NCBI GenBank assembly: GCA_965140415.1
Contig: OZ223209.1
Coordinates: 448,001-512,000, forward strand
Reading direction: 5' to 3'
Length of the DNA: 64,000 bases
Origin: Myxococcota bacterium
GTDB taxonomy: Bacteria > Myxococcota_A > SURF-8
Of this stretch, positions 20,822 to 62,393 are shown in pieces. The notes beneath the pieces are model-generated. The model had not been told where the DNA came from. It saw only the letters and a program-made list of their open reading frames with translations, and ran no database searches. Position 1 is the stretch's first letter, and each line of letters opens with the position of its first letter. The position numbers and the translations under genes were made by a program.

Positions 20822-20942
20822 ACGAAACGAGATGGATTGACTCGATACCACGCGACGGTTGAGCCACGGTCGTCGCAGCCCGGACAGGGCAATACTGTAC
20901 ATCGAACGGAAACAACAAGCTTGGTTGGGAAAGGAGTGTCCA

Positions 20943-21620
20943 ATGCTTTCCACGAAAGGATTGTGGGCGTGTCTCGTATTGGCGTCGCTGGTGGTGGTAG
21001 GCTGTGACTCCTCGGACTGTGGCGACTGTATCGGGGATGGTGATAACGCGTTGTGCGAAGAAGGCGACAAGGGTTGCGACGATAGCTGGCGGACTGTCTG
21101 CATCGAGGGCGCCTTTGAACGCATCGAAGATTGCGATATCGTTAATGAAGCGTGCCAGGACGGCTTTTGCGTACCGTATGCTACCGATGGCGATGGCATT
21201 GCCGATGGAGACACGACCGATGGCGACAGCACCGTTGATGGCGATGTGGCGGACGGTGACAAGGTGGATGGCGATACTGTGGTCGACGGCGATAATCAGC
21301 CCGATGGCGACATGGAAAACGATGGCGATGTTGTGGTCGATGGTGATGTAACCGATGGTGATGTAACCGACGGCGACATGGATATGGTCGATGGAGATAG
21401 CCCAGTGGACGGCGATGCTCCCGATGGCGATATCATCGACGGAGATATCATCGATGGCGATATGGAAGCCGATGGCGATACACCAATTGATGGCGATGTC
21501 ATTGACGGAGACATGGACGGTGATGCAATCGACGGTGACAGTCCGGTAGATGGCGATGTGGACGGCGATTGCGATCTGGAAGATTGTGAAGCGGAAGGGG
21601 AAGTCGTAGCGGCGGAATAG
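20943..21620 (+). CDS. Cys-rich lipoprotein with long DGD-repeat tail
   Basis: RBS AAGGAG, lipobox VVGC, a Cys-rich module, then about 24 DGD units. Confidence 0.85.
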   Translation: MLSTKGLWACLVLASLVVVGCDSSDCGDCIGDGDNALCEEGDKGCDDSWRTVCIEGAFERIEDCDIVNEACQDGFCVPYATDGDGIADGDTTDGDSTVDGDVADGDKVDGDTVVDGDNQPDGDMENDGDVVVDGDVTDGDVTDGDMDMVDGDSPVDGDAPDGDIIDGDIIDGDMEADGDTPIDGDVIDGDMDGDAIDGDSPVDGDVDGDCDLEDCEAEGEVVAAE

Positions 21621-21656
21621 GATTGCCCGCTAAATCGCTTCTCTTTTAGTAAGTAT

Positions 21657-21700
21657 GAACGAGCCGAGTCGGTTAACCGCTCGGCTCGCTTCATTTTTGT
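21657..21700 (+). terminator. Intrinsic terminator
   Basis: GAGCCGAG...CTCGGCTC hairpin followed by a T-tract. Confidence 0.7.
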
Positions 21701-21715
21701 CTGTTCAGATTCGAC

Positions 21716-21830
21716 GGGTGGCATTGGCCAAGCGAAGAGAAACGGAGCTTGCCCATGTGGCTCCTTAACACGGGCAAGCCTGCGGCTTAGCCCGCGCCAC
21801 CCTAAAATCAGACAGGTTTGCAACTTCTTG
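21716..21830 (-). repeat. Dispersed palindromic repeat family A, copy 2 (115 bp)
   Basis: The reverse complement aligns without gaps to 10500-10614. Confidence 0.9.
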
Positions 21831-21946
21831 TGATGCACCCTGTTGGATCTGGAATACCTTATTTTACCACAATTCCTCTTGCCTTTTACTCCTATTTATG
21901 AGACACCACCAATCCTTGGTTCTCCCTTTTTGGTTAGGAAATAAGT

Positions 21947-23800: not shown

Positions 23801-23861
23801 GTTTTAGAAATCGTTAGCAAGCAGTCTGCTGCCGGATGGCGTCCAATTTCCAACACCCGGT

Positions 23862-23890
23862 TTGACTCCCGTGGGTCTTTCTCCTATGAT
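23862..23890 (+). promoter_or_regulatory. Putative sigma70 promoter
   Basis: TTGACT-17 nt-TATGAT. Confidence 0.55.
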
Positions 23891-23969
23891 AGGCTCCGTT
23901 ACATTCGGTTCTTAGTTGATTTTAGCTGAGTTAGAGAAATTACTAGTCATCATTAGCGATATCTTCTTT

Positions 23970-24096
23970 TAGCGGCGAGGCGTAAGCCCGCCGTTTTCAA
24001 GATGTTTTTCGGTGGGCGGCATGGGCGAAGCGAAGGGAAACGGAGCTTGCCCATGTGCTTTTGAACACGGGCAGGCAGGCTCACGCCTCGCCGCTA
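23970..24096. repeat. Partial family A copy (24014-24073) bracketed by 23-bp inverted repeats
   Basis: TAGCGGCGAGGCGTAAGCCCGCC (23970-23992) matches the reverse complement of 24074-24096 with 2 mismatches. The interior matches the 3' half of family A. Confidence 0.8.
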
Positions 24097-24122
24097 CGAA
24101 TATCGAATCGCCTGTACTCGAA

Positions 24123-38680: not shown

Positions 38681-39832
38681 TCAGCGGGTTTGGTTGCGAT
38701 AGCTTACCACGCGCGGGCATTCAGGATCGGGGGCGCGATCCTCCCCGCAAAGATAGCGCGTCACCGCGCGGCAACCGCCATTGCATAAGTCCAGATAGTC
38801 GCAACTCGCGCAGGGTTCGGGGGCATTGTCACGCCAGTTTCGCAAAGCTTGCAATTCCGGGCTGTCGGTCCAATTTTCGGGCAGCGAACGCGCCTGCACG
38901 CCGAAAGGTTCCAAAAAGCTGCATCCGGCGACTTGTCCATTGGGTTGTACGCCGATCAGATGATTCCCCGCTTCGCAGCCCAATACCCCGAAAAACTCCA
39001 TGGTGTTTCGATCCGGAGCATGACTGGCGATCATGGGCACGAAGGAGCAATCCACCTTGATCGAAACTCCCAATCGTTTGGCAAGCTTGCGAATGGTCGG
39101 GTAAAAGTCTCTGGCCTGTTGCGGCGTAAGCGCGTGTTCTTCGTATTTTGTGCGACCCCTGCCGAAAGGCTTGAAACGCAGCAGTTCCACATCGTGAAGT
39201 TTCAATTTTCGCGCCAACCGGACCATCTCGCCGATGCCGTCATAGCTTCGCCGACTGACTACCATGTTGATGCCGCAGCGCACCCGAGCGGCTCTCAAGC
39301 GCTTTAATGCTGCGATGGCCTGTTCGGGACGGATGCCGCGCCCGGTTACGGATACCGGGCTGAGATCGTCGAGTGAAACGTTGACCTGTCCGAATATGCG
39401 GCAGGCGCGAGCAACTTTTTCCGTAACGAACAAACCGTTGGTCGTCAGATTCGGAACGACGCCACGTGAGCGCGCATAGGCAGCCAACTCGAAAAGATCC
39501 TCGCGCTCCAGCGACTCACCCCCGCCCATCGCCACGTGAAACACGCCGAATTCCGCTAGCTTATCAATCGCTTCCTTCCAGCCCGCCGTGTCCAGCTCAT
39601 CCGCATCCGGCTTGGGGGTCGCCGCCACATAGCAATTTGCGCAACCTGCCGAGCAGCGCCGGGTGACTGTCAGATGGGCTTCGATTGGCGCGCTCAAAAT
39701 CCGACTTTCCGTCTGCCAGAGCGGGTGAGCGGGCAGACCCCAGCGAGTCAGCGCGTCTTTGTCGACGTAGACCAGCATGGGTGGGCGAGTGAAGGCGGCT
39801 ATCGCGCCGAATGGTTCGTAGCGAAGTTTCAT
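38681..39832 (-). CDS. Radical SAM/SPASM domain protein (PqqE/MftC-like)
   Basis: CSAGCANC, GGGE and TTNG motifs, plus SPASM cysteines CEAG...GC...CASCDYLDLCNGGC...PDPEC. Start is 39832 or 39877. Confidence 0.9.
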   Translation of the reverse strand: MKLRYEPFGAIAAFTRPPMLVYVDKDALTRWGLPAHPLWQTESRILSAPIEAHLTVTRRCSAGCANCYVAATPKPDADELDTAGWKEAIDKLAEFGVFHVAMGGGESLEREDLFELAAYARSRGVVPNLTTNGLFVTEKVARACRIFGQVNVSLDDLSPVSVTGRGIRPEQAIAALKRLRAARVRCGINMVVSRRSYDGIGEMVRLARKLKLHDVELLRFKPFGRGRTKYEEHALTPQQARDFYPTIRKLAKRLGVSIKVDCSFVPMIASHAPDRNTMEFFGVLGCEAGNHLIGVQPNGQVAGCSFLEPFGVQARSLPENWTDSPELQALRNWRDNAPEPCASCDYLDLCNGGCRAVTRYLCGEDRAPDPECPRVVSYRNQTR

Positions 39833-40089
39833 GGCGCGAGCATACTCGCCGATCGAGAATGGGTCAATGACTATCAAGCATTTCCCGAATTTGTCTCCCT
39901 ATGAAAATAAGGAAACCGTTTGGTGCAATTTATTGCTTGACGACGAAAAGCAGGAAGCTACAATCAATGTAGATCAATTGGCCGCTTTACGTTGAGAATG
40001 GATTTCTTTCCGGAATACCCAAATCGATACGGCCATCGAACGTGTTTGGAATACATCGTTTTTCTGGAACATCACCAAAGGAGATTCGC

Positions 40090-44424: not shown

Positions 44425-44537
44425 TAGAGCAGATATTACTCATTGCTGTCCATCGAGTGTGCCACGATCTTCGATCGCGTAAGACGATGGCACAACTTCT
44501 TGGAATCAGTGGCTGAATATGACGAATACCTAGTCTA
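44425..44537. mobile_element. Repeat family B MITE-like element (113 bp, internally deleted)
   Basis: Imperfect terminal inverted repeats TAGAGCAGATATTACTCAT / TAGACTAGGTATTCGTCAT. The interior matches 63338-63518. Confidence 0.65.
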
Positions 44538-45032
44538 AAGCAGGGCCATTGTTGCTGCCGCAATGATAAGACCCAGCGTGCCGCCGACGGAAATATCGTA
44601 TTTATCATGCCTTAGCAGCACCACCCGCGACCAGGCAATCAGCGCCGCAAAGGCCAGCACCGCCGCACCGATGAGCGGATTTCCCAGTTTCAATGCAATC
44701 AACAGCGCGAGATTGAACGAGCGCGCCGAATGAATCGAAGGCATCGAGCCGGAATCGACGTATTTGAAAAAGGCGATGGCGGTTACGGGGTTAAGTAGTT
44801 GATAATACTTTAATCCTTGGATAGGTCGAGGCGGACGGTACCCCTCCGGATTGTCCGGGCGGGGTTTGAAGCGAAAGGCTTTGTACGTGTTGGCGATAAT
44901 GGTAATCACCACAAAATCCGCCAGCATTGCCAGGCCGAAGCTTAGATCCTGGGTCATGGCCGCAATACAGACCACCAAACCGCCCGCTAACGTTCCCCAA
45001 AAACTCACTGCTTTCCAGAAAAATCGAATCAC
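44535..45032 (-). CDS. PAP2-family membrane phosphatase
   Basis: K....RP, SMPSIHS and SRVVLLRH...D motifs. Confidence 0.88.
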   Translation of the reverse strand: MIRFFWKAVSFWGTLAGGLVVCIAAMTQDLSFGLAMLADFVVITIIANTYKAFRFKPRPDNPEGYRPPRPIQGLKYYQLLNPVTAIAFFKYVDSGSMPSIHSARSFNLALLIALKLGNPLIGAAVLAFAALIAWSRVVLLRHDKYDISVGGTLGLIIAAATMALL

Positions 45033-49843: not shown

Positions 49844-52288
49844 TCAAGGAGAAACTCTCATTCCCGGGTTGCTGTCGCTCGTTTTTTCAGGTGGCAGCGT
49901 TCCCGGTAAAAACACTTCCTCCAGCGCTCCCGGCGCATCTCCGCTAACCCGTTCACCGCTTTCCGGGTCGATATAGGCATGTAGTAAACCTGCCGCTACC
50001 GGGAAGGGCTGCACGGCTTCGTTCTGCAAGGCCGTTTTCATAAACGCCACCCAGCCGGGTAATGCCGCCCGTGCACCGGTTTCGCCGCGCCCCAAAGGCC
50101 GGTGATCGTCGTAGCCGACCCAGATTCCTGCTGCCAGTTTGGCGCTGTAACCCACGAACCAGGCGTCGCGCTGATCGTTTGCGGTGCCGGTTTTTCCCGC
50201 CACCGGTCGTTTGAGCGCCAGTGCCCGGCGCGAGGTGCCTTCTTTGACTACCGATTCCATTAAGGAAACCATTATTGCGGCTTCTTCCGGCGCGATGGCC
50301 TGACGCAGATTGGGCGTGCGCCGATACAAAATCCGGCCCGAAGAGGAAATCACCTGCCGAATCAGGTAGTCATCGTCGTATTGGCCGCGATTGGCGAAGG
50401 TGGCGTAGGCGTTGACTTGCTCTTCCAATCGAACTTCCGATGCACCCAACGAAAGGCTCAGCATCGGATGCAGCTTGGAGTGGATGCCGAAGGCGCGAGC
50501 GGTTTCGATGACCGCTGCCGGGCCGATATCGTTGATGATTTTCGCAGCGACGACATTGACGGAATTCGCCAGCGCCACCCGCAGACGAATCGGACCCCGG
50601 AATTTGCCGCTGAAATTCTGCGGCGACCAGGGCCTGGAGCCGGGAATGGGAAACGTGACCGCTTCGTCTTTTACGATGCTGGCCGGGGTGTAGCGATGGG
50701 TTTTTAACGCGGTCAGATAGACGTAAGGTTTGAAGCTGGAACCGGGCTGACGAAGCGCCTGGGTGGCGCGGTTAAACGGACTTAACGCCGCGCTGAATCC
50801 GCCCATCATGGCAACGATGGCGCGGCTTGGAACGTCGATAGCCAGCATGGCCGACTGCGCTTCGGGAACCTGCATCAATTTCAAGGCGATGGCTTCAGCG
50901 TTCTTCTCACCTGGCGGGTGTGTGCCGTCCAGCGCCACAACGATCGCCTGATTGAGTTGGAAAATCGAAGACAATTTCGTCTGGCGTTTCTTTTTTTTGT
51001 AGAAAGTCCAGGATGCGGCAGGCTGCTCGATGAAACCTCGTGTCGCTCCAAGTTGCACCGTTAGCCGGGGTGGCGAGTCCTGAATTTGGGTGATGTAAGC
51101 GTAATAAAGCTTTTCCGCTCTGACCACGCGAATCATCGTGCGCCAGAAGGAAGATGACGTTTCGTTCTGGGCGTTTTCCTGCATGTCGTCATTAACGGAT
51201 TTTTCCGTCATCGGCAGATGTTCGGCAGAGAAGGCCAGAACTTCGGCTTGGCCTCCGTTTCTCGTGAAGCGTTCCGAAAATTGACGAATCTGCTCGTTCC
51301 AGTCGTCGGTTTGCTGTTTCGGTAGGACCGGCAAGGCCCGATAGGCATGGCGTCGTTCATAATCGAACAGATTTTCCCGCAGTTCTTTCGCCATGGCGCG
51401 TTGCAACTCGGGCCGGATGTCGGTCATGATCTTCAAACCGCTTTTCGTCACATCCTGTTCGGGCAGTAACTCCGACAATCGGCGGCGGACTTCCTCCACG
51501 ACGTAGGCGGCTTCTTCGCCCATCTGTTCCGGCGGTGTGAAAACAAGCGGTGCATCGATGAAACGGGCGTAGTCGGCTTCGGAAATGTAGGCCAATTCCT
51601 TCAATCGTCTCAGGACGTATTGCTGACGTGTTTTGGCGCGTTCGGGATGGCGGTTCAACGCCAGAATTCCCGGCCCCTTGGGAAGACCGGCCACGTAGGC
51701 GATCTGGCCGATGTCGAGTTGTTTCAAGGGTTTATTGAAATAGAAATGTGAGGCTTCGGCCACGCCGTAACAGCCGTTTCCGAAATAGATTTCATTGGCG
51801 TACAGATACAGAATTTCCTGTTTGCTTAACCGGTTTTCCAGGCGATAGGCTAAAATGGCTTCCTTGATCTTGCGTACAAAGGAACGTTCGTGCGTAAGCA
51901 GCAGATTTTTACAAACCTGTTGCGTGATGGTGCTGGCACCCTGCCGGACGCGCAAGGCCAGCAGGTTGGCGATCATGGCGCGCGCAATACCGAGAAAATC
52001 GACGCCGTCGTGCTGATAAAATCCGGCGTCTTCGGCGCTGACCAGGGCATCGAGCAACAGCGGCGGGATCTCTTCTACGGGAACCAGGCTGCGGCGCTGT
52101 TCCCCGAATTCACCCAGAATGCTTCCATCGTGGGCGAAGATGCGGTTGATCTGGGCGGGGTGATAGTCCTCAACCGTGCGGATATCGGGTAGATCCTGGC
52201 TGTAGTACCAGAAAAGCGCGAAGATCGCGAGTACCCCGCAGAATCCCGCTACAAGCGACCCGAGTAATGCCAATCGCAGCCAGCGCAT
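49844..52288 (-). CDS. mrcA: Class A penicillin-binding protein 1A
   Basis: Transglycosylase motifs (EDAGFYQHDGVD, GASTITQQ, RKIKE) and transpeptidase motifs (RQPGSSFKP, SVN, GKTGT). Confidence 0.95.
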   Translation of the reverse strand: MRWLRLALLGSLVAGFCGVLAIFALFWYYSQDLPDIRTVEDYHPAQINRIFAHDGSILGEFGEQRRSLVPVEEIPPLLLDALVSAEDAGFYQHDGVDFLGIARAMIANLLALRVRQGASTITQQVCKNLLLTHERSFVRKIKEAILAYRLENRLSKQEILYLYANEIYFGNGCYGVAEASHFYFNKPLKQLDIGQIAYVAGLPKGPGILALNRHPERAKTRQQYVLRRLKELAYISEADYARFIDAPLVFTPPEQMGEEAAYVVEEVRRRLSELLPEQDVTKSGLKIMTDIRPELQRAMAKELRENLFDYERRHAYRALPVLPKQQTDDWNEQIRQFSERFTRNGGQAEVLAFSAEHLPMTEKSVNDDMQENAQNETSSSFWRTMIRVVRAEKLYYAYITQIQDSPPRLTVQLGATRGFIEQPAASWTFYKKKKRQTKLSSIFQLNQAIVVALDGTHPPGEKNAEAIALKLMQVPEAQSAMLAIDVPSRAIVAMMGGFSAALSPFNRATQALRQPGSSFKPYVYLTALKTHRYTPASIVKDEAVTFPIPGSRPWSPQNFSGKFRGPIRLRVALANSVNVVAAKIINDIGPAAVIETARAFGIHSKLHPMLSLSLGASEVRLEEQVNAYATFANRGQYDDDYLIRQVISSSGRILYRRTPNLRQAIAPEEAAIMVSLMESVVKEGTSRRALALKRPVAGKTGTANDQRDAWFVGYSAKLAAGIWVGYDDHRPLGRGETGARAALPGWVAFMKTALQNEAVQPFPVAAGLLHAYIDPESGERVSGDAPGALEEVFLPGTLPPEKTSDSNPGMRVSP

Positions 52289-52511
52289 AAAACAACCTCC
52301 AAAATTTCCAAATAATATCATATCGTTCTGTAATAATCAACTGAATGTAATAGTCTCCATTGCGGCAAACCGGTACTTCTGCTTTAACAAACCACAAAAT
52401 ACAGACCAATCAAGCATGAAAGATGAGGTAGAATAGGTTGCTAAACTAAAAAAGAAAATCAAATAACTAAATAATATCAATCATTTTCGAGATTATAATT
52501 TAAAATAGGCA

Positions 52512-52540
52512 TTGACTTTTACACCGAGTCAGTTTATTGT
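52512..52540 (+). promoter_or_regulatory. Putative sigma70 promoter
   Basis: TTGACT-17 nt-TATTGT in an AT-rich intergenic region. Confidence 0.45.
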
Positions 52541-52609
52541 TTTAGTGTTATTGCTGTTTTGCTGGTATGCCACCTGGTGGTAGTAGCTGAAGCTGAAAGA
52601 TAGATTGTT

Positions 52610-53329
52610 TTGAAGATTGGATCATCGTTGGCTGTAGCGTTCATCTTAGGGTACTTCATTGTAACGACTGTTTCTATGGCAGAAGTTCAACATACCTGGA
52701 TTCTCGATGAGAATTCGACCAATCAACTCTTTTCCTCGGTAAAACAAACTGTCGGTCATTTTCCCGGTTATGAAATCACGTCTTTTTCCACCGATCAAGG
52801 CTTGGCCAAGCTGTTACTGAAAACCTCCTCCGGTAGCGTGGGTGCAAATCTGTACCGCGTAGGTGATCAGGTTACAATCGATTTCGATCCCTCATTAGCT
52901 ACGGAAGATCAACGCAGGTTAAAACGCGAACTAATGAAGACAATTGACTCTTCTCTATGGACTGTCAAGCCTGTTGCCTGGCGGGGGCATCAGCAGGAGC
53001 AGTTGGAGTTGGTGAATCTGGCCTTGGCGGAGTCGACTCTTTTCGCTGTAACAATTAACCGACTCTCCCACATGACGGTCTATCATTTCCTTGGATTGAT
53101 CATGGGAGTGTTGCTGGCGGTGATGCGTCCGTGGTTGAGGAGAAACAACAAACGACGCTACGAACGCTCTTTCGGAATCTGGGTGTTGATTATGCTGCTG
53201 ATTGGGATGATCTGGGCGCTACGCGGGTCCATTCAATTAGTGGCAATGCCTCTTGCGGTACTGCCGATTGGGCTTGGTTGGTTGATTGGTGGAATCCCGA
53301 AAACAAAGCACACCCGAAACGACATTTAG
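52610..53329 (+). CDS. Hypothetical membrane protein (paralog 1)
   Basis: Signal/TM, a soluble domain and three C-terminal TMs. Shares ERS.xIxVL, WALRG and LGWLxGG with 53565-54362. Confidence 0.75.
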   Translation: MKIGSSLAVAFILGYFIVTTVSMAEVQHTWILDENSTNQLFSSVKQTVGHFPGYEITSFSTDQGLAKLLLKTSSGSVGANLYRVGDQVTIDFDPSLATEDQRRLKRELMKTIDSSLWTVKPVAWRGHQQEQLELVNLALAESTLFAVTINRLSHMTVYHFLGLIMGVLLAVMRPWLRRNNKRRYERSFGIWVLIMLLIGMIWALRGSIQLVAMPLAVLPIGLGWLIGGIPKTKHTRNDI

Positions 53330-53564
53330 CAGTGGTTATTTCTTGTTGGTATTGATTCCAGAGTGACAGTTTTCTCGCTTTTCTTCTATTCCGTATTCTA
53401 GCCTGTTGTACGTAACTTTAAGTCAAAAAAGGGGAGACATTTCGGGCGAATTCCGAAATTTGAAGAATTGTTCGTTTGATATTGACAATTACTGACATTT
53501 TGTTAAAAATACGACATCTAGTTGAATTGGACCGCCAAAGAATACAAAGACAAAACATGAACAG

Positions 53565-54362
53565 TTGAAGTTGAGGCTGATTCGTATGGTGCATATGTTC
53601 GAAAGTATGCGGAGCAAGGAATTATTGTTCGCGGCTGTTATGATTGCTGTTTTTCCAATAATAGCTGGGCAAGAGCAGATTGCCTATTGTGACAATTCGA
53701 CTCCACAGTCCATGAACCAGACCCGCCAGTGGGTGCTGAAAGCCGAGGTCGTTCAAGAAATTTTCGGCAGGCTCGACCAGTCGTTCAAGTCGGTTGATGG
53801 GGTTCGGATGGTGCGATTTCAGGCAGAGCAAGGGAGTCTTTTGCTTCAGCTTTCCGTTTCGGGTGCTCCGTTAGATGTGAAGGTGACAAGAGAATCCGCC
53901 GGAAAGATCGCGATTGATATCACTTCGAGCCTTTCCCAAAGGCAACAGGATCGAATTGCTTCCATCATTCGCGGGCAGTTGTCGCCCTCTTATTGGGAAA
54001 TGGTTTCAAAGCCGAATTCATTAAAGAAAGGCTGGCTCAGTTCTAAATCCATTGTGGAGAAAGCCACACCGGAACTGGAAGCGATTCTGGCTAACCACCT
54101 AAAACTGTCAAGCCAGAACGTTGCAATCTCGATTTCATTGGCATTGCTGGTTGGCCTGCTTCGATTGATGCTTCAATTGCGCCAAGTGCCTACGGTGGAA
54201 CGTTCCGGTTCAATATTCGTTTTAACGATATGCATTCTGGCCATTTGCTGGGCCTTGCGCGGCATACCGGAATTTGCCTTTTTTTCGTTTGTGGTGAGTT
54301 TCATCGCTTTGGGCTGGTTACTTGGTGGAGTGAGGCTTCGCCGCCGGGAGGCAAAGCCATGA
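53565..54362 (+). CDS. Hypothetical membrane protein (paralog 2; start uncertain)
   Basis: Paralog of the upstream gene. The stop overlaps the radical SAM start (ATGA). Confidence 0.75.
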   Translation: MKLRLIRMVHMFESMRSKELLFAAVMIAVFPIIAGQEQIAYCDNSTPQSMNQTRQWVLKAEVVQEIFGRLDQSFKSVDGVRMVRFQAEQGSLLLQLSVSGAPLDVKVTRESAGKIAIDITSSLSQRQQDRIASIIRGQLSPSYWEMVSKPNSLKKGWLSSKSIVEKATPELEAILANHLKLSSQNVAISISLALLVGLLRLMLQLRQVPTVERSGSIFVLTICILAICWALRGIPEFAFFSFVVSFIALGWLLGGVRLRRREAKP

Positions 54363-55618
54363 AGTCGATGCACTTGCGCAGTACACGCGGGATCTGTCCA
54401 CAATGTGGAGAAATGGTCCGCGCCGAAGTCATTCACGAGGGTGACCGGATCGTGCTGCATAAACATTGCCCGCAGCATGGTGCGTCGGAAGCGTTGATCA
54501 GCAAACATCCGGATTTCTACCGGGCTATCGACAAGCACCTGACTCCGCCGTTTTCTTCTGCCCTGCGTTTTGCTTCGGATGCTCCTCACCTGAATGGGGT
54601 GTTTGTGGATGTCACCGGGCGCTGCAACCTTCGTTGCACCTGCTGTCTGGCCAGCGTTGGCCACGACGAACGCTCGGAGCCGAAGCTGGCCGATTTCCTG
54701 CACTTTCTGAAAACCCTCAAACAGCGTCCCTTGATTTATCTTTCCGGCGGAGAACCCACCTTGCGTTCGGATCTGCCGGAATGGATTCAAACGCTCACGG
54801 AACACGGGTACACGGTCAAGCTGTTGACCAACGGGTTGACTTTGACGGATTTTGCCTACGTGCAGCAGTTGAAGGCTGCCGGGCTGCGCTGGGCGATGAT
54901 TCAGTTCGATTCGCTCTCCGATACTGCGCTGCAAACGTTGAGAGGGTGTCCTTTGGCGGAGGTTCGTCGGCAGGCGGTGGAAAACTGTGCCGACGCCGGG
55001 TTGCATATCGTGTTGCCCTGCGTGATCCATCCCGGTGCCAACGATCATGAATTAGGTGATTTGCTGGCCTTTGCGCAGCGAACTCCGGCGGTGCGACAGG
55101 TCTCGTTCTTACCCGCAGCCAATCAGGGAAATTGGTCGTTTAACGAAAATCGGGCCGGATTGGAAGCGGCGGACATCTGCGATCTGCTGTTTCGGCAGAC
55201 AAAGGGGCGTATCGGACGCCGGGATTTCCTGACACAGTTTTCCTGGATGGCGCGCCTGCATCGCAGCAGCCGCTTGGAACATCTGGCACCCCGACGTTGT
55301 TTTCTGCCGTTATTGGCCACCCGAAACGAGCAAGGTGTCTGGCCGATCAATCGCCTGCCGCGTTCGTTGGGGCAGCTATTTTCTCACGTCCACGCGGCCA
55401 AAGACGTTTTGGGAAAACTGCTGCAATGGCAGCCGTTCGAGCAGGACGAGCACCCACACGACAGCCTGTTGTACATCACCATCGAAACCTTTCGCGAACG
55501 CGACTCGCTGGATATCGACGATGCCTGCATGTGCAGCCGCTATTACTGGGCCGACGATCGCCTGACACCGGCCTGTCTGTACAACCTGCTTTATCGGACG
55601 CAGGAGGTGCAGGCATGA
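54359..55618 (+). CDS. Radical SAM protein resembling the MJ0619/Tes (GDGT-MAS) family
   Basis: N-terminal TRGICPQC...LHKHCPQHG, DVTGRCNLRCTCC, SGGEPT, LLTNG, QFDSL, and C-terminal F...D.LD.....C.C........PACLYN. Confidence 0.8.
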   Translation: MKSMHLRSTRGICPQCGEMVRAEVIHEGDRIVLHKHCPQHGASEALISKHPDFYRAIDKHLTPPFSSALRFASDAPHLNGVFVDVTGRCNLRCTCCLASVGHDERSEPKLADFLHFLKTLKQRPLIYLSGGEPTLRSDLPEWIQTLTEHGYTVKLLTNGLTLTDFAYVQQLKAAGLRWAMIQFDSLSDTALQTLRGCPLAEVRRQAVENCADAGLHIVLPCVIHPGANDHELGDLLAFAQRTPAVRQVSFLPAANQGNWSFNENRAGLEAADICDLLFRQTKGRIGRRDFLTQFSWMARLHRSSRLEHLAPRRCFLPLLATRNEQGVWPINRLPRSLGQLFSHVHAAKDVLGKLLQWQPFEQDEHPHDSLLYITIETFRERDSLDIDDACMCSRYYWADDRLTPACLYNLLYRTQEVQA

Positions 55619-57333
55619 ACATGATTGTCAATCAGCTTGTATGCGCCATCTGTTTAAGCGCCGCATTGTATTGCCTGATCGATTACGTGCAGGAACGTGC
55701 GGAAAAGCCGTTGCCTTCGCGTTTCAAGACGATTCTGCTGATGCTGGTCGTGTTGGCCGGTGGATTACTGGCCATTAGACTGTATGCCCCACCGGCTTTT
55801 ATTCATGCGAATCTGCATGGGTATGACCTGCTGGACAACATCTATTCTTTTCCTCAACCTGCCGATTACCGAAGCGCTTACGGTCAGGGATCGTTTTTAC
55901 TGATGGGCGTCTGGGAGTCGCTGTTCGGTTTGCAGTGGCAGGGATTGATTCTGCTGAACAGTCTGGCCAATGTGGGAATTCTGTTGTTGGCCGCTGCGCT
56001 GGCCTATCGGGTTTCCGGTAGTTTTGCAGCGGCTGCGGCAATTGCCATCGGCGCATTGCACCCGCTGTTTGTGCGTGTCGCCGCATCCGAAGATGCCCAT
56101 AATATCGGAGTCTTTTTCGGTATGCTGGCTTTGTATGCGCTGGTGGAGTTTGTTGCTGGAAATAGAAAGCACATTATCTGCCTGGTTCTGCTTTGCTGTA
56201 CAACGATTCTGACTTTGCTCTCGCGTCAGAGTTTGCTGTTCTGGCCCATCATGATTGCGCTTTATCTGGTCTTGACAAACCGCAAAGCGGTTTCTCCGTG
56301 GCGTTTGCAGAAAAAGCACTGGGTGCTCATCGCCTCTTTAGTTGCTGTGATGGGAATTGTTCTTCTGATCATGCTTAACCAGAAGAGCGAGCGGCTTTCG
56401 GTAGTGGCGATGTTTTCCATTCCGTTTTCGAGCTTGAAACTCGTGACGTTCATTTTCAAGAACCATCCGCTCTTTCGCTTGGATGAGTCGCTGCCGTTGC
56501 TGCTGTTGTCGATTTCCGGTGCCATCGTGGCGCTAAAAAGCCGTCAGCCATTGTTGCTTACTTTGCTGGCAGGAGCCGCGATCAGTTTTGTCATGACGCT
56601 GGGAATGTCCGTGCATCCGGGTTACGGCGTTGAATACGGATTCCGCCTGCCATTGTTTGCGTTGTTGTTGCCGTTGGCGGGTGCCGGTGCGGCATTTCAA
56701 CTGGAGGCATTGAAGAAAACCTCTCTCGGTCGCATTGCCGGTTTCGTGGCGCTTGCCCTGGTGCTTTTATGGCCGCTCCCTGCATTGATGCAGACCCTTG
56801 TAGAGTCGGAACCGTTGCAGCAGCAATATGAAATCGTCGAGCGTGCACGAATGAATTACTCCAATGCAAGCCGGGCGCTGGTAGTGAAAAACAAGGCGAA
56901 AGAGTCGCCTAACTTCGATTGGCCGACCTCCTTCCGCAATCCGCCGGGAATGTCCTTCGTTCACGAACGCGATGCAAAGGAAAGCGATAACATCTGCTAC
57001 GTGTTGCAGGACTTGCGCTGTTTTGCCTATTCGCTGGTGGAGCAGACTCCCAGTGGAGAAGCGCTTGAGATGTTTGAAATGGTGATGAATCTGTCACCGG
57101 ATGAACAGGCTCGGTTTCTAGATGGGTTGTGGAATGATGCCAACGAGAGCTTCAGCGTGTTGAATCAGGTGCCGCCCAGCGGTATGCGTAGGGAATGCCG
57201 TCAGGCATTCGCCAAAGCGGTTCGCTTCGATACCTGGGGTGTCGTGAAGATTCCGCACCAGGAGCTTCCTCATGTGTATTACACGAGCGATGAAATTCCG
57301 GTAGGCGTCTGGGTGATGCCGGGGTGCGAGTAG
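55615..57333 (+). CDS. Polytopic membrane protein, GT-C glycosyltransferase-like
   Basis: Many TM segments, a first loop HANLHGYD, ALHPLFVRVAASEDAH and a soluble C-terminal domain. ATGA overlap with the upstream gene. Confidence 0.6.
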   Translation: MNMIVNQLVCAICLSAALYCLIDYVQERAEKPLPSRFKTILLMLVVLAGGLLAIRLYAPPAFIHANLHGYDLLDNIYSFPQPADYRSAYGQGSFLLMGVWESLFGLQWQGLILLNSLANVGILLLAAALAYRVSGSFAAAAAIAIGALHPLFVRVAASEDAHNIGVFFGMLALYALVEFVAGNRKHIICLVLLCCTTILTLLSRQSLLFWPIMIALYLVLTNRKAVSPWRLQKKHWVLIASLVAVMGIVLLIMLNQKSERLSVVAMFSIPFSSLKLVTFIFKNHPLFRLDESLPLLLLSISGAIVALKSRQPLLLTLLAGAAISFVMTLGMSVHPGYGVEYGFRLPLFALLLPLAGAGAAFQLEALKKTSLGRIAGFVALALVLLWPLPALMQTLVESEPLQQQYEIVERARMNYSNASRALVVKNKAKESPNFDWPTSFRNPPGMSFVHERDAKESDNICYVLQDLRCFAYSLVEQTPSGEALEMFEMVMNLSPDEQARFLDGLWNDANESFSVLNQVPPSGMRRECRQAFAKAVRFDTWGVVKIPHQELPHVYYTSDEIPVGVWVMPGCE

Positions 57334-57335
57334 TC

Positions 57336-58322
57336 ATGCGCCCGACGACCGTTGCCGGCGGATTGGCCAAACTGCTGCTTGCGCGTGCAACAAAGCGCAG
57401 CCTCTGGTCGCATGTCACCGCATTGATCACCATGCGCTGCAATTATCGCTGCGCCTACTGCGATTTTCACCGGCACGAATTCGAGGAATGGCCCAAAGAG
57501 AACTGGCTACGCTTATTACCGCAACTGCGACAGCTAGGGACGATCCGCCTTAGCCTTTCCGGCGGCGAGCCGCTGTTACGTCCCGATTTGCCGGAACTGA
57601 CCGACTGTGCCGCAAAGCAGGGATTCATCACCAGTCTGGTGACCAACGGTGCGTTATTGCAGCAGCGCCTGCATGAAATCCGGCAGGTGGATTATCTGCT
57701 GTGTACGATCGAAGGCGATCGGCAAACTCACGACAAGGTGCGCGGTGAAGGGTCATTCGAGCAGGTCGTTACCGGAATCGAGGCGGTACGGCGCAATAGA
57801 AAATGGAAAATCGGGCTGATCTGTCCCGTCCATAAAGATAATCTTTCGCAGCTGGAAGAACCGCTGAAACTCGGTGAGCAGTTGGGGGCGGGTGTGTTTT
57901 ACCAGCCGGTGCAGATTCGTCAGGGCTGGCAGGGAACCGATTTCGAACGGACCTTGTCCGAAGTGGAGCTTCATGAAGCGCTACGCACCCTGCAACAGTG
58001 GAAGCAACAAGGCCGACCGGTGGGTAATTCCCATGCCTATCTTCGCGGACTGGCGGAAAATCGTCTGTTCGATGCCGAGCAGCCTTGCACGGCAGGAGAA
58101 ACCTTTGTGACCCTGCTCCCCGACGGGCGGGCCTTGCCCTGCTGTATGCTGCCGTTTTCCGACGCAATCTCCGTCGATCCAAACAATCCCGCTCTCGCCA
58201 TGCAGCATCTAAGCGCGGTCTGCTGCCAAGGTTGTTCGATTGCTCCTTATTATGAAAACACACGCTTGCTCAACCTGTCGCCTTCGAGTATTGTGAACGC
58301 TCTGAAATGGAACCGAAAGTGA
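57336..58322 (+). CDS. Radical SAM protein with Twitch/SPASM-like C-terminus
   Basis: CNYRCAYC, SGGEPLL, VTNG, HDKVRG.G.F and CTAG...PDG..LPCC...CCQGC. Confidence 0.9.
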   Translation: MRPTTVAGGLAKLLLARATKRSLWSHVTALITMRCNYRCAYCDFHRHEFEEWPKENWLRLLPQLRQLGTIRLSLSGGEPLLRPDLPELTDCAAKQGFITSLVTNGALLQQRLHEIRQVDYLLCTIEGDRQTHDKVRGEGSFEQVVTGIEAVRRNRKWKIGLICPVHKDNLSQLEEPLKLGEQLGAGVFYQPVQIRQGWQGTDFERTLSEVELHEALRTLQQWKQQGRPVGNSHAYLRGLAENRLFDAEQPCTAGETFVTLLPDGRALPCCMLPFSDAISVDPNNPALAMQHLSAVCCQGCSIAPYYENTRLLNLSPSSIVNALKWNRK

Positions 58323-59161
58323 CGTTCATCAATATGTCTCCAATTGCAACAGCATGGTTCAAGTTACTGCGCCCGACGGATTGGCTGCATTTTCTGTTTC
58401 TGCCGCTGATGACTATCTCATTTGCGGAGTTCAATGGCGTCTGTTTGGTTTCCGCCCTGATCGGCGCTGCGATTTATCTGGCGTTTGCCTATGGCTACAA
58501 CGAATACAAAGACAGCGGTCTTTACAAGTGGAACAGGGAAGCGCTAAGGGAATACCTGGGCGTGGGACATGTCGGTATTTGGCTGGCATGGATTGTACTG
58601 ATTGCTCTTGGTTTGGCTGTTACGGGGTTGTGTGGCGCATCCTCACAGATCGCGATGCTTAGTGGAGTGATCGGTAGCTATTTGTACTCTGGCGGTCCCA
58701 GGCTGAAACGCTTTCCCGTGATCGGCACTCTGGCCAATCTGTGGATCTTTCTTCCGGTAGCCCTTTTAGGTGGACAGTTTTCGCTCGTTGCCGCCGCGCC
58801 CTGGCTGTTAGGCGTCTTTTCGTTACTGCTGATACAAAACCAGTTGATCCATGAAGCCACTCACCGCCAAGAAGATCGGCGCGACAACATCCGCACCTCC
58901 GTTGTGGTGTTCGGTAATGAATTCGCCCGATACGGTTCCGCTTCGCTCGGACTTTGTGCGGCGGTGTGCATGGCGGGTTTCGGCTGGATTCACGAAACGT
59001 CGATCCTGTTTGTGCCTGCTCTGATACTTGCGCTATTCAGCGGAATCTATCCGTTCGCCTGCCTCTTTGTCGAAGTCTCCTCTCTTTCGCGGTTGCGCCT
59101 GTTGCAGCGTTATGTCGGTGTCGCCTGTGGAGCGGTTTTCTGGATCGGAACGATTTTCTGA
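58307..59161 (+). CDS. UbiA-family prenyltransferase
   Basis: LLRP..W, YGYNEYKD, YLYSGGPRLKRFP and HEATHRQEDRRDNIRT...FG, with multiple TMs. 58334 is an alternative start. Confidence 0.8.
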   Translation: MEPKVTFINMSPIATAWFKLLRPTDWLHFLFLPLMTISFAEFNGVCLVSALIGAAIYLAFAYGYNEYKDSGLYKWNREALREYLGVGHVGIWLAWIVLIALGLAVTGLCGASSQIAMLSGVIGSYLYSGGPRLKRFPVIGTLANLWIFLPVALLGGQFSLVAAAPWLLGVFSLLLIQNQLIHEATHRQEDRRDNIRTSVVVFGNEFARYGSASLGLCAAVCMAGFGWIHETSILFVPALILALFSGIYPFACLFVEVSSLSRLRLLQRYVGVACGAVFWIGTIF

Positions 59162-59267
59162 AGCTCAACATGCCCGACAGGGATGATATGAGCGACTAGC
59201 GACAATCCTGCTCGTTGACTTTCCTGCATTTTTGGGGTATCAGAGGGGCGAGCAAAGGAGGTTTCCC

Positions 59268-60182
59268 GTGAAGATTCAAGCGTATCCCGAATACCTTTTC
59301 GACCCGTCCACCCGGCATATGCTCTCGGTCGCTCATCAGGACGATGAAATCATGTACTGCGGTTTGATCCAGCGCTGGGGCGAGGATTGCCGCTTTTTAT
59401 GGACGACCAACGGCGATGGGCTGGCACCGTTCGTCAATGCGGACCCGAAGGAATATGCCGAAATCCGCAAAGCGGAAACGGATGCCGTATTGACCACGCT
59501 GGGACGTTCGCTGTCGTTGCGCCGCTGCATGGATTACTCTGAAATCGAGATCTACGACAATTTCGTCGACTTGACGCTTGCGCCGCAGCGCACCGAAGAA
59601 ATCATGGATTTCTTTTACAAGATCGGCTGTGAAATCTACCGGGAAATCAAAGAATTCAACCCGGATGTGGTGTGGTCGGGAGCCTTTCAGAACGGGCATC
59701 CCGAACACGATTTGGTACATTTCCTTTCCGGGTATGCCATTCGCCAGATCAATAGCGAACAGGAAAAACAGATCGCTTTTTATCATCTGCCTGAATACGA
59801 GTACACGATCCTGCTGCCGTTCCGTTTTCATCCCCGCTACAAAGGCATCATTCACGCCATCGAACTGACGGAAAAGGAAGTGGAAGTCAAAGCCCAGGCG
59901 TTGCAATGCTATCCCAGCCAGGTGGATTTGTTTACCAAGTTCGAGCGTGTATTCAATGGGTTGGGTAAGTTGTCCGGTTTGCTCGGAAAGCCTTTTACCG
60001 CAGAAGATTTCTTAAAGAAGGAAATCTTCTCGAAGGTGCCGGATGACATCGATTACACGAAATCCACCCATTGGTTCGAGTTCGAGAATTACATCGGCGA
60101 CAAGAACAAGAATATCAAAGTTCGCTTTGACCGTCACGTCGGAGCGATTGCCGCCCGGATGCGCGATCGGCCTTTCGCCTGA
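59268..60182 (+). CDS. PIG-L/LmbE family deacetylase
   Basis: AHQDDE, TTNGD, R..E...V, GHPEHD and K..AL.CY.SQ motifs. AGGAGG RBS before the GTG start. Confidence 0.88.
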   Translation: MKIQAYPEYLFDPSTRHMLSVAHQDDEIMYCGLIQRWGEDCRFLWTTNGDGLAPFVNADPKEYAEIRKAETDAVLTTLGRSLSLRRCMDYSEIEIYDNFVDLTLAPQRTEEIMDFFYKIGCEIYREIKEFNPDVVWSGAFQNGHPEHDLVHFLSGYAIRQINSEQEKQIAFYHLPEYEYTILLPFRFHPRYKGIIHAIELTEKEVEVKAQALQCYPSQVDLFTKFERVFNGLGKLSGLLGKPFTAEDFLKKEIFSKVPDDIDYTKSTHWFEFENYIGDKNKNIKVRFDRHVGAIAARMRDRPFA

Positions 60183-60254
60183 TTGGTAGGCGGAGCAAGT
60201 CCCATCTGATTGTACGGGGCGGCGAAATTCCGTGATGTACAGGAGGCACAAGTC

Positions 60255-61619
60255 ATGCGTGCTCGGATAATCAGCATAGTGGCGATCCTGTTGTGTTGGA
60301 TCATGGCGGCGGCAAACGCGCAGGCCGGTGAGATTATCCGCCTGGATCAGGCGCAGCGGCTGGCGCTGGAAAACAATCACGATATCAAGGAACTGGTGGA
60401 GAAAAAACAGCGGGCGGACATTACCCTGATTCGCGCCTGCACGATGCTGCTGCCCAGTATCTACCTGCGCGGGTCGATCACACGCCACGACAAGAGCATC
60501 AAGTTTCCATCCGACAGCGATATGGATCTCTTACAGACCGCCTGCGATCAGGGCGACGTTTCTTCCTGTGCGACCTTGCAGTCCACCGAGCAGATGACGA
60601 TCCAGGATTTGTGGGGTTATTCGACTTCGTTGACTGCGACCATGCCGCTGTTCTACCCACGTTCGATTCCGCTGATCATGAATGCCGATAGTGGTGTGGA
60701 TGTGATGGATTTGATGAAGCGCCACGGCGAGTCAGAACTGTTGTATTCGGTTACGGCGGCTTATTATGCGGTGTTGCAGGCGGATAAGCTGGTTGACGTT
60801 GCCGAGAAAGCCCTGGAACGCTCGCAAGATCATTTAAAGAGCGCACAAAACAAGGTCAAAGCCGGTAAAGGCGTGCGCCTGGAAGTGCTGCGCGCCGAGA
60901 TGCGTATCGCCGAAGCGGAAAAGGCACTGACGGAAACCACCGCCGGACGCGATCTGGCCCGGCAGGGATTGGGGTTCTTGATCGGACGCCCGGAAACGTT
61001 TGGCGTTGTGTTGCCGGAAATCGTGGCCAAGCAACCGGAAGGCAGCGTACCTTCACTGGTGGAAAACGCTCAGCGACAACGTTTGGATTTGCGGGCGATG
61101 CGAGAAAACGTGGTGATTGCAGATCGCAACAACACCGATGCCTGGCTGAAATTCGCACCGGACTTTTCAATTCAAGGAAGCTATAGTTGGGCCAACGCCA
61201 GCGGCTTTTCCAATTCCAATTCAAGCTGGCAGGTGATGTTCATGGCCAATCTGCCGATTCTGGAAGCCGGAACGCAGGTTGCGGATATCATGGAAACCGC
61301 CAGTAAAACCCGTTCCTCGCAGATCGAAGCGGATAAATTGGCCGAGCAGATCGCCAATCAGGTGCGCGAGGCGGAACTGAATTTGAATCAAGCGCGTGCG
61401 AAACTGGACGTTTCGATCAAGCAATCGGAACTGGCCAGGGAAAACTATGAACTGGTCAAGCGTCAGTACGATGTCGGCCTGGTGGACAACCTCACGATGC
61501 TGGATGCCGAAACGGAGTTGTTCCGGGCGGAGCAGTCGCAGGCGCGTGAAGAACTCTCTGAAATTCTGGCGATTCTGACTTTGCGTCAGCGTTCCGGTTT
61601 CATTTTGGGAAGGAAATAG
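60255..61619 (+). CDS. TolC-family outer-membrane channel
   Basis: Signal peptide, LALENN.DI, VTAAYYAVL and QYDVGL...L..LDAE motifs. Confidence 0.92.
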   Translation: MRARIISIVAILLCWIMAAANAQAGEIIRLDQAQRLALENNHDIKELVEKKQRADITLIRACTMLLPSIYLRGSITRHDKSIKFPSDSDMDLLQTACDQGDVSSCATLQSTEQMTIQDLWGYSTSLTATMPLFYPRSIPLIMNADSGVDVMDLMKRHGESELLYSVTAAYYAVLQADKLVDVAEKALERSQDHLKSAQNKVKAGKGVRLEVLRAEMRIAEAEKALTETTAGRDLARQGLGFLIGRPETFGVVLPEIVAKQPEGSVPSLVENAQRQRLDLRAMRENVVIADRNNTDAWLKFAPDFSIQGSYSWANASGFSNSNSSWQVMFMANLPILEAGTQVADIMETASKTRSSQIEADKLAEQIANQVREAELNLNQARAKLDVSIKQSELARENYELVKRQYDVGLVDNLTMLDAETELFRAEQSQAREELSEILAILTLRQRSGFILGRK

Positions 61620-61622: not shown

Positions 61623-62393
61623 ATGCGGTTAAGGGGTTTCTTAGCGGCGATTGTCGTTTGGTTCATGATCTTCCCATGCTGGGCGCAGGATGCGGAACAG
61701 CTACCCGAAAAGGTGGAAACAACAGTCGAACAACCAAGTGGTACTCCTGCGGCTAAAAAAGCGACGAAACCGGAAAAACCGGAAAGCGACACACTGGCGG
61801 GAGTCGATGTTCTATTGAACAACAAAATGCTTTTCGATCCCGTACCGGGAAGTTGGGCGCGTTATCGATTGGAAGAAAAGATCCAGCAGCAGAGTCGGGA
61901 AATTCTGGTCGGTATCGGACCGCGGCGTGGCGCGATTGCCAAAAACAGCTACTGGATCGAAATCATCACTACCAGTAAAAGCGGCACCGAGGTTAAAATC
62001 GGCGTTTTGTATCGAATCGACAAGACCGGTCGGCACGAGGTGGATCGCCTGGTCGTCAAGATGGGAGATCATCCGGCGGTGGAACTGCCGGACAGCTCGA
62101 CCGAATATTCATTGACGCGGGAAAAGCCGGTGCGTTACGCCCAGTTGGGAATGGAAAAAGTCGAAGTTCCCGCCGGGCGGTTCGATGCCGAGCGTGGACG
62201 CTTCCGCTATACGGAAGATGAAGTGATGGAAGTGTGGACTTCCAAAGATGTGCCGCCCTTTGGTATCGTGCGCGCCATGTCGATCACCTACGATCTGCAG
62301 CTGATGGAATACGGCTCCGATTTCGAACCGATGGAGTTGGGCGAGCCGATGATTCTAAAGAGCCCCGAACCCTTCAATGCAAACAAGCCATGA
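61623..62393 (+). CDS. Secreted hypothetical protein
   Basis: Signal peptide and motifs GSWARY, EKVEVPAGRF and VW.SKDVP.FGIV. The stop overlaps the xerD ATG. Confidence 0.75.
   Translation: MRLRGFLAAIVVWFMIFPCWAQDAEQLPEKVETTVEQPSGTPAAKKATKPEKPESDTLAGVDVLLNNKMLFDPVPGSWARYRLEEKIQQQSREILVGIGPRRGAIAKNSYWIEIITTSKSGTEVKIGVLYRIDKTGRHEVDRLVVKMGDHPAVELPDSSTEYSLTREKPVRYAQLGMEKVEVPAGRFDAERGRFRYTEDEVMEVWTSKDVPPFGIVRAMSITYDLQLMEYGSDFEPMELGEPMILKSPEPFNANKP

Follow-up and report, generated by a model that had tools for sequence, protein, structure and literature searches.

The stretch of DNA analyzed here (hereafter the window) comprises 64,000 nt from a Myxococcota bacterium (GenBank assembly GCA_965140415.1, contig OZ223209.1, positions 448,001 to 512,000 of the forward strand) and carries, at 52610-59161, six open reading frames (ORFs), p1 to p6, all on the + strand. 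An inspection of the sequence without database searches (hereafter the sequence-only reading) had placed six co-oriented genes at exactly these positions and proposed that they form an undescribed lipid-tailoring cluster combining a Tes-like radical SAM enzyme (p3), a GT-C-like protein (p4), a second radical SAM enzyme (p5), and a UbiA prenyltransferase (p6). Our comparison across genomes shows that the conserved core of the locus is the near-obligate pair formed by the radical SAM gene p5 (57336-58322, 328 aa) and the UbiA gene p6 (58307-59161, 284 aa), that a GT-C enzyme is a frequent partner of this pair, and that p3 is one of several interchangeable extra radical SAM enzymes found beside it. 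A tailored prenyl lipid or glycoconjugate is the most likely class of product, and we put at roughly 40% the probability that this product is an envelope lipid or glycolipid that carries a prenyl (isoprenoid) chain, is tailored by radical SAM enzymes, and is made by a pathway embedded in the membrane. No paper on this gene combination was found in the limited library searched, in agreement with the earlier statement that the combination is undescribed.

The evidence for the core comes from its recurrence. Across 401 genomes of the window's phylum, whose kinship means that ratios overstate support, a p6-type UbiA gene occurs in 19, one copy each, and in 18 of them a p5 gene is no more than 3 kb away, the sole miss being at a contig end; both gene orders occur. 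When all frames of 25 loci were clustered all-against-all (the sister-locus genes, which are high in GC, are our own frames checked by Pfam or BLAST only), the p5 family was present in 24 and the p6 family in 23. Full-length p4 orthologs (at least 390 bits) were found in six genomes, all of which carry p6, against a base rate of 19 in 401, and strict p3 orthologs (at least 550 bits) in three, again all with p6; genes of the p3, p4, and p6 types are absent from all five same-family and all four same-order genomes. Because the genes recur together elsewhere, their grouping in the window is more than chance, and the expectation that they would co-occur in other genomes was borne out. The idea of a four-gene unit survives only in part: the p5-p6 core stands and a GT-C-like gene lies beside the pair in 14 of the 25 loci, but a p3-type gene is present in only six, a figure that includes four loci retrieved with p3 itself as the query. 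The GT-C-like genes are p4-type in nine loci (six by clustering, nine with tblastn matches added), belong to a second PMT_2-like family in four, and to DUF2079 in one. Other extra radical SAM enzymes are of a tandem type in seven loci and of a B12 type in four, and such variation from locus to locus is as expected for tailoring enzymes. In three loci (L105, L113, and L118), large proteins with two Radical_SAM stretches each adjoin the p5-p6 pair, such proteins being present in seven loci overall.

Anchored searches give the same picture in finer grain. The p3-anchored search of genome contigs returned five orthologous loci: three of them (L014, L015, and L016) have homologs of p4, p5, and p6, a fourth (L012) has two p5 copies, a UbiA gene, and a DUF2079 membrane protein, and the fifth (L013) has no homolog of p4, p5, or p6. 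For p4, a single-sequence locus search of genome contigs gave no match and alignment-based searches then worked, yielding nine metagenome loci, none with a p3 ortholog; p5 adjoins p4 in five of these (L090, L092, L093, L094, and L095, of which L093 and L094 carry an identical p5) and p6 does so in three. Genes suited to sugar supply differ between loci, with DegT in L014 and L015, a polyprenyl-phosphate hexose-transferase-like GT2 in L012, and a PIG-L gene in the window. In three genomes of one genus (G383, G063, and G183; loci L096, L097, and L099), full-length p4 sits beside a 435-457-aa protein and an Acyl_transf_3 gene; the p5-p6 pair is on another contig, where in that genus it adjoins TetR, HlyD, AcrB, and OEP genes (L113, L116, and L118).

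As first proposed, p6 is a member of the UbiA superfamily of intramembrane prenyltransferases (Pfam PF01040, 45.4 bits against a cut-off of 34.2). A profile of its family matched three solved chains at E<=1, namely AfUbiA from Archaeoglobus fulgidus (4TQ3; 1.6e-21), DGGGPS (6M31; 2e-6), and UBIAD1 (1e-5). With AfUbiA it shares the YSxxPRxKxxP motif and five of the six residues tested, R18, N61, D65, K130, and D186 of p6 corresponding to R22, N68, D72, K146, and D202; in the part of PMC4106721 available, these AfUbiA residues are shown to matter for Mg-dependent binding of geranyl pyrophosphate (GPP), and the natural acceptor of AfUbiA is given as unknown. The UbiA-radical SAM pair offers a concrete way into the AfUbiA clade, for which there is a crystal structure but no known acceptor. 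The sequence-only reading had pointed to the ether-forming DGGGP synthase, a kinship that we do not find: AfUbiA is far nearer (1.6e-21 against 2e-6), the DGGGPS model of NCBIfam is unmatched by p6 of the window (7 of 17 members at the family level, best 1.1e-11), and no GGGPS/PcrB homolog was found in the 5.98-Mb genome (93.7% complete) by a search that gave matches in 7 of 14 control genomes. Because p6 is not DGGGPS-like and the genome shows no GGGPS homolog, an ether-linked archaeal-type lipid is without support, and an archaeal-type ether or tetraether lipid is an unlikely product.

The partner of p6 is, as originally described, a second radical SAM enzyme (Radical_SAM 72.9 bits, with the CX3CX2C motif at C35/C39/C42); the Pfam SPASM model is unmatched. 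In a 25-row alignment the three motif cysteines, C269, and C300 are invariant and C251 is kept in at least 90% of rows, the C-terminal cysteines (C251, C269, and C300) being arranged in a way that, on sequence, resembles a twitch or partial SPASM domain. p5 falls under the cut-off of every NCBIfam model, the best being PTO1314 (TIGR03961; 114 bits against 306), and its nearest solved relatives are SkfB, PqqE, and BlsE. A complex prediction for p5 and p6 (25-row and 17-row alignments) scored 0.00 against a mark of 0.32, which gives no verdict either way. Some other roles were considered and set aside. Among the NCBIfam matches listed for p5, no MqnC/MqnE, heme, or chlorophyll model stands above generic SPASM families, so menaquinone (futalosine) and heme or chlorophyll readings were dropped, as was an ebo cluster, the ebo genes being absent. 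Hopanoid biosynthesis through HpnH/I/J/K combines a PIG-L-type deacetylase with radical SAM enzymes acting on a lipid glycoside; this analogy serves as a lead only, HpnH scoring 46.5 bits on p5 and HpnJ 105 bits on the B12 enzyme of L015, both far under their cut-offs.

The 572-aa product of p4 (55615-57333) is modeled with high confidence as a GT-C glycosyltransferase, which upholds the earlier GT-C-like label with a fold match over both membrane and C-terminal domains in a confident model (pLDDT 93.1, predicted template modeling score 0.94). Foldseek placed GT-C enzymes at ranks 1-41 among the matches listed, with no others, and VIA-align gave Z 26.5 for STT3A, up to 26.1 for yeast Stt3, 24.2 for AglB, 22.8 for Pmt4, 22.7 for PglB, 22.6 for ALG12, and 21.8 for ArnT. 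p4 is predicted to share with the STT3/PglB/AglB, PMT, and ArnT enzymes the fold over residues 30-570 and the presence of acidic and His motifs in outer loops; on the other hand, identity to them is only 10-16%, the score on Pfam PMT_2 (PF13231) is 17.0 bits, below the cut-off of 26.1, and p4 stands in a family of its own. This family is small (7 word-index matches), an exhaustive profile search returning 335 clusters (50% identity) at E<=1e-3 and 99 at E<=1e-30. PMT_2 is matched by 21 of 68 members at E<=0.01 (best 6e-11), the ESM Atlas neighbors are RgtA/B/C/D-like and PMT_2 clusters, and by sequence the profile finds no solved protein better than E 0.055. The protein comprises about 12-13 hydrophobic helices followed by a 180-aa C-terminal domain, and it conserves a Cys469/Cys528 pair and the motifs FIHANxHGY and RxAASEDAH, both in loops predicted by hydropathy to face outward.

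The protein p3 (54359-55618, 419 aa) is a module accessory with a Zn-ribbon (rubredoxin-like) domain (Pfam Zn_ribbon_HMPTM, 50.6 bits, cut-off 27) and a radical SAM domain (77.4 bits). Among solved proteins, a profile built from p3 and its 21 closest relatives matched the archaeal enzyme GDGT-MAS (Tes, MJ0619; 7TOL/7TOM) with E 5e-73 to 7TOL, MoaA being next at 7e-19, and its AlphaFold model (pLDDT 86.7) superposes on 7TOL with Z 38.3 and a root-mean-square deviation of 3.1 A over 411 of 419 residues at 28% identity, the next fold reaching Z 20.4. The two share the whole-chain fold, the rubredoxin-like motif (CX2C-X20-CX2H, C13/C16/C37/H40 in p3), the CX3CX2C core (C89/C93/C96), the equivalent of Tyr459 (Y396), and a C-terminal cluster domain with three cysteines invariant in the p3 clade. 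"Tes-like" is therefore the right description of p3 at the level of architecture and fold, and p3 is a distant cousin of the archaeal enzyme. The likeness does not extend to membership of Tes. p3 scores 163.2 bits on the Tes model (NF045702, cut-off 450) and 193.9 bits on the TrsS model (NF045646, cut-off 490), nominally its best NCBIfam match. Proteins of its clade (13 of 56 superfamily members scanned) score 110-197 bits on the Tes and TrsS models, and 110-174 on Tes. By comparison, the Tes model gives true TrsS proteins 270-383 bits, and the TrsS model gives true Tes proteins 302-347 bits; Tes and TrsS are thus closer to each other than the p3 clade is to either. In a 72-row tree, p3 lies in a 23-row clade (SH-like approximate likelihood-ratio test, SH-aLRT, 98), outside the Tes (99) and TrsS (100) clades, and forcing it into Tes cost 222.9 log-likelihood units (p 6e-30 in the approximately unbiased, AU, test, for a group named only after the tree had been seen). 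By sequence, the p3 clade is thus a third clade beside Tes and TrsS. The sequence-only reading had named beforehand a position of this enzyme outside the MJ0619/Tes clade as telling against its proposal, and outside that clade is where p3 is found.

The p3 clade also differs from GDGT-MAS in its cofactor sites. The available part of PMC9433317 describes these sites in GDGT-MAS, including the [Fe4S4]N ligands C73, C77, and C80 with a His, presents the enzyme as acting on lipid tails and as having hydrophobic pockets, and reports the labile [Fe4S4]C ligand Met439 as completely conserved across 1000 archaeal homologs. In our alignment, the [Fe4S4]N motif (GCPxDCGxCxxH) is deleted in 27 rows, which comprise the p3 clade and its nearest kin, and is present in the consensus of 8 Tes, 23 TrsS, and 7 intermediate rows; at the position of Met439 the p3 clade has a Glu (IETF), whereas Tes and TrsS have Met. 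Between the core and the C-terminal motif, p3 is also about 35 residues shorter than GDGT-MAS, and its gene context is bacterial, without archaeal lipid genes. TrsS belongs to the same Zn-ribbon radical SAM superfamily, but its members keep the [Fe4S4]N motif and the Met, both lost in p3, and form a clade that does not include p3. In the literature found, no function is described for TrsS, which appears as one table row in the part of PMC13188914 available and is unmentioned in the passage found of bioRxiv 10.1101/2022.07.06.499078. Bacterial Tes homologs have been proposed as enzymes of membrane-spanning lipids that are used as climate proxies (PMC8941075, as far as its available text goes), none having a confirmed activity according to the accessible parts of PMC13159169 and PMC11868695; the p3 clade may already be among the 456 "Tes homologs" of the bacterial Tes tree in PMC8941075. 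A whole branch of the Tes superfamily has thus lost the N-terminal cluster and the labile Met, and where its context is conserved this branch stands beside a UbiA-radical SAM pair and a GT-C gene, not beside fatty-acid or ether-lipid genes.

Some further observations concern the relatives of p3. The nearest proteins of its clade, and the loci with names, come from metagenome-assembled genomes (MAGs) labeled Myxococcota, Myxococcales, or Deltaproteobacteria, and the relatives of the window's genome are likewise metagenome bins. A homolog with 29% identity in one genome (G012) lies among unrelated genes (M64 peptidase, Memo, and HEAT-repeat) and was left out of the synteny evidence. A contig of a Candidatus Moraniibacteriota MAG (L018, about 1-7400), a candidate-phyla-radiation genome of about 0.9 Mb, carries three Zn-ribbon radical SAM paralogs in tandem, which group with the branch without [Fe4S4]N. 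Two fusion proteins were also seen, one of 682 aa (P0023) joining a GT2 glycosyltransferase domain to a p3-like radical SAM enzyme, and one of 727 aa (P0027, labeled Pelobacter propionicus) joining TrsS to an MbdU-like metal-binding domain.

Taken as a pathway, these genes suggest the following scheme. Judging by its conserved residues, p6 would bind a prenyl diphosphate with Mg2+ and move the chain to an acceptor at the cytoplasmic face of the membrane, and p5, its observed neighbor, could then use a single auxiliary cluster site in altering the substrate or product of p6 at an unactivated carbon. Radical SAM enzymes of these classes are known to act on unactivated carbons, and either the hydrocarbon or its head group may be what is tailored. 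From its predicted fold, p3 would tailor a hydrophobic tail as an additional, optional step, a role that B12-type or tandem radical SAM enzymes may fill in sister loci. At the periplasmic face, the modeled GT-C enzyme p4 would glycosylate the lipid or an envelope acceptor from a polyprenyl-phosphate-linked sugar, which the locus-variable amino-sugar genes (PIG-L here, DegT or GT2 elsewhere) would supply; p1 and p2 would be lineage-specific membrane proteins without an assigned step. A further reading, which we regard as rather unlikely, goes as far as a new bacterial envelope lipid made by AfUbiA-like prenylation, its tail cross-linked, cyclized, or methylated by the interchangeable radical SAM enzymes and then glycosylated by the GT-C enzyme, p3 needing just two [4Fe-4S] clusters and having a Glu where the labile Met would be. 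If true, it would amount to a bacterial analog of archaeal GDGT tailoring that evolved on another lipid scaffold, and would provide the first function both for a bacterial member of the Tes superfamily and for the AfUbiA clade.

Several observations weigh against a tailored prenyl lipid or glycolipid. Since p3 is without two cofactor features tied to Tes chemistry, its fold is the one argument for a lipid substrate, and no link of TrsS to lipids was found in the literature. In p6 of the window, a Mg ligand is replaced, His182 standing at the position of AfUbiA D198, and the third Asp of motif 1 (AfUbiA D76) is a Tyr, a position that is also non-Asp in some near kin. The nearest solved relatives of p5 include SkfB and PqqE, which are peptide and cofactor maturases, and L014 carries two PapB-like peptide maturases. 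Genes for a polyprenyl synthase or a flippase were not observed at any of the loci. Finally, 10 of the 25 p5-p6 loci have no GT-C-like gene near the pair and p4 is far from the pair in three genomes; p4 may therefore serve another glycan.

In the main rival explanation, which we consider unlikely, the locus modifies a periplasmic glycan: p6 would load a sugar phosphate onto polyprenyl phosphate, the reaction that DPPRS/PPPRS carry out with phosphoribosyl pyrophosphate (PRPP), p5 would take the place of the auxiliary epimerases in remodeling the lipid-linked sugar, and p4 would add it to the glycan. The combination of a UbiA-type synthase, a GT-C enzyme, and auxiliary sugar-remodeling enzymes follows an established logic, as described in the available part of PMC11127046 for a three-component pentofuranose system (PPPRS, flippase, and the GT-C enzyme GT136) and for the mycobacterial DPA-arabinan. 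The confident GT-C model of p4 and its RgtA/B/C/D-like and PMT_2 neighbors in the ESM Atlas fit this logic, as do the DegT, ArnC-like GT2, and PIG-L genes of the sister loci or the window, the glycan-type acyltransferase (Acyl_transf_3) beside p4 orthologs in three genomes, and the match of p5 to BlsE, a sugar-modifying radical SAM enzyme, at E 1e-21. The locus departs from those systems, however, in having a radical SAM enzyme where epimerases would stand, no flippase or phosphatase gene in the operon, and a UbiA-radical SAM pair that often occurs without a GT-C-like neighbor (10 of 25 loci). Nor does p6 show a specific likeness to DPPRS/PPPRS: no DPPRS chain is among the three solved matches of its family at E<=1, and the DPPRS model NF008978 is touched by 2 of 17 members (best E 0.0019; no reference DPPRS was aligned directly). 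The glycan explanation also leaves no role for a GDGT-MAS-fold enzyme or for the B12 radical SAM enzymes of sister loci. Because p6 shows no specific likeness to those synthases in these comparisons and no flippase is encoded, we keep it as the main rival and a tailored prenyl lipid or glycoconjugate as the preferred product.

The original form of the proposal, in which p3 joins two lipid tails and a DGGGPS-like p6 contributes to an ether-linked or membrane-spanning lipid that is glycosylated by p4, is now quite doubtful. In its favor are the whole-chain GDGT-MAS fold of p3, with the rubredoxin and radical SAM motifs, the Tyr459 equivalent, and the three C-terminal cysteines retained, and the proposed involvement of bacterial Tes homologs in membrane-spanning lipids in the text available of PMC8941075; in addition, the B12 radical SAM enzymes of sister loci belong to the enzyme class of the archaeal GDGT ring synthases, according to the part available of 10.1101/2025.10.20.683597. 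Against these stand the score of p3 on the Tes model (163 bits against 450, further from Tes than TrsS at 270-383), its separate clade (SH-aLRT 98, with a p-AU of 6e-30 for placement in Tes), the deleted [Fe4S4]N motif and the Glu in place of Met439, and its presence in only 6 of 25 loci. The nearness of p6 to AfUbiA and the genome without a PcrB/GGGPS homolog tell in the same direction, and the lipid proposal for bacterial Tes homologs itself lacks a member with confirmed activity in the accessible text of PMC13159169 and PMC11868695.

An improbable third explanation is that the locus modifies a protein or peptide, p4 acting like an oligosaccharyltransferase or PMT, possibly on p1 or p2, with p5 and p3 as maturases and p6 supplying or anchoring a lipid carrier. 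The best structural matches of p4 are indeed oligosaccharyltransferases (STT3A) and, further down, Pmt4, but the Z differences among GT-C classes are small (ArnT still reaches 21.8). The C-terminal domain of the oligosaccharyltransferases STT3/PglB/AglB carries the peptide-binding motif WWDxG, and no WWD string is present in the p4 translation, which was checked by eye only. Maturases are suggested by SkfB and PqqE, the best solved relatives of p5, and by L014, where two PapB-like radical SAM/SPASM enzymes flank a 107-aa ORF beside the GT-C gene (17622-21169), possibly as a separate unit for a ribosomally synthesized and post-translationally modified peptide; however, no precursor-peptide gene recurs beside the p5-p6 pair in the 25-locus clustering, and we know of no role for UbiA enzymes in peptide maturation. 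Likewise, exported domains are present in p1 and p2, and in L092 a p2-like gene separates p5 from p4, but p1 and p2 are absent from nearly all sister loci. That the genes are neighbors without a shared function, their tight spacing being the operon packing of unrelated genes, is very improbable and already disfavored: p1, p2, p7, and p9 are not conserved with the rest, and many p5-p6 loci are without p3 and many without p4, but p5 adjoins p6 in 18 of 19 genomes in both orders, GT-C-like genes accompany the pair in 14 loci in several arrangements, and p6 co-occurs with p4 and p3 in all six and all three genomes, respectively (a count that kinship among genomes inflates).

The two genes at the head of the block, p1 (52610-53329, +, 239 aa) and p2 (53565-54362, +, 265 aa), encode membrane proteins without a Pfam match and are paralogs of each other (25% identity over 214 aa, E 6e-13). 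By hydropathy, p1 starts with a signal or anchor helix, continues with about 130 aa of soluble sequence, and ends in hydrophobic helices that carry a W..RG...LGWxxGG motif. Searches of all frames of L011-L018 by hidden Markov model and phmmer gave no homolog of p1 or p2 under E 0.37, and p2 has no usable match in the ESM Atlas. A p2-like gene was found by tblastn between p5 and p4 in L092 (5727-6326, 22.8% over 215 aa, E 2.4e-7); p1, p2, and this gene (5613-6341) make up a small unnamed membrane-protein family whose members combine an anchor at the N terminus with an exported domain of about 130 aa and a C-terminal W..RG...LGWxxGG motif. Apart from this one case, p1 and p2 are not conserved partners of the other genes.

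The tight coupling described for the last five genes was confirmed to the nucleotide: ATGA overlaps join p2 to p3 (54359-54362) and p3 to p4 (55615-55618), TAG and 2 nt separate p4 from the ATG of p5 at 57336, and p5, with its stop at 58320-58322, overlaps p6 by 16 nt (58307-58322) when the latter starts at ATG 58307. An alternative p6 start at GTG 58319 gives a GTGA overlap and equals the 280-aa form in the protein collection, and the ATG of p3 is nested in a longer frame (54230-55618). Upstream, the block adjoins mrcA (49844-52321, Transgly and Transpeptidase), which is divergent from p1. The AT-rich promoter regions noted next to mrcA are AT-rich as said, but their promoters are less secure: against a window-wide GC of 54%, the mrcA/p1 (52322-52609) and p1/p2 (53330-53564) intergenic regions have 33% and 36% GC and contain promoter-like sites on the + strand at 52512-52540 and 53482-53510 (the latter with 10 of 12 consensus positions), yet the promoter and terminator scan counted 9 such sites and shuffled sequences gave 7.1 +/- 2.4, so that the number is not above chance. 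The GC content at third codon positions (GC3) is 0.60-0.67 in p3-p6, like that of the neighbors (0.61-0.65), and somewhat lower in p1 and p2 (0.55), so that GC3 gives no compositional sign of recent transfer of p3-p6. Three relatives (G004, G001, and G008) keep the SBP5-hyp473-mrcA order and have none of p1-p9 within 13-15 kb past mrcA; tblastx of this far side against 30 kb of the window's genome (G000) gave spurious short matches only, and the borders of an island therefore cannot be drawn.

Downstream, p7 (59232-60182, +) encodes a PIG-L/LmbE-family de-N-acetylase-like protein (42.6 bits, cut-off 28.2) with no homolog in any related locus by tblastn, and is possibly an accessory at this locus only. 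It is followed by p8 (60210-61619, +), a TolC-type outer-membrane efflux protein (OEP, 154.3 bits), and, starting 3 nt past it, by p9 (61623-62393, +), which encodes 256 aa of no known family. In L113 and L118, OEP homologs belonging to the TetR-HlyD-AcrB-OEP sets are found at a distance of about 6 kb from the p5-p6 pair, and a link of p8 to the module is uncertain. A Xer-type recombinase gene is also present downstream of the module. Elsewhere in the window, a gene for a PAP2-family lipid phosphatase is found 7.6 kb upstream of the module on the other strand (44535-45032), with no link shown, and a further stand-alone radical SAM gene at 38681-39877. The interval 14554-25922 holds big ORFs without a Pfam match, of 1458 aa (14554-18930) and then 383, 294, 180, 633, and 636 aa. 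Two DNA-type sequencing runs from one study contain the stretch. At 7631-11143, a gene for a FAD-oxidase/CCG/4Fe-4S fusion protein precedes one for a class III (multiheme) cytochrome c, which suggests an anaerobic lifestyle.

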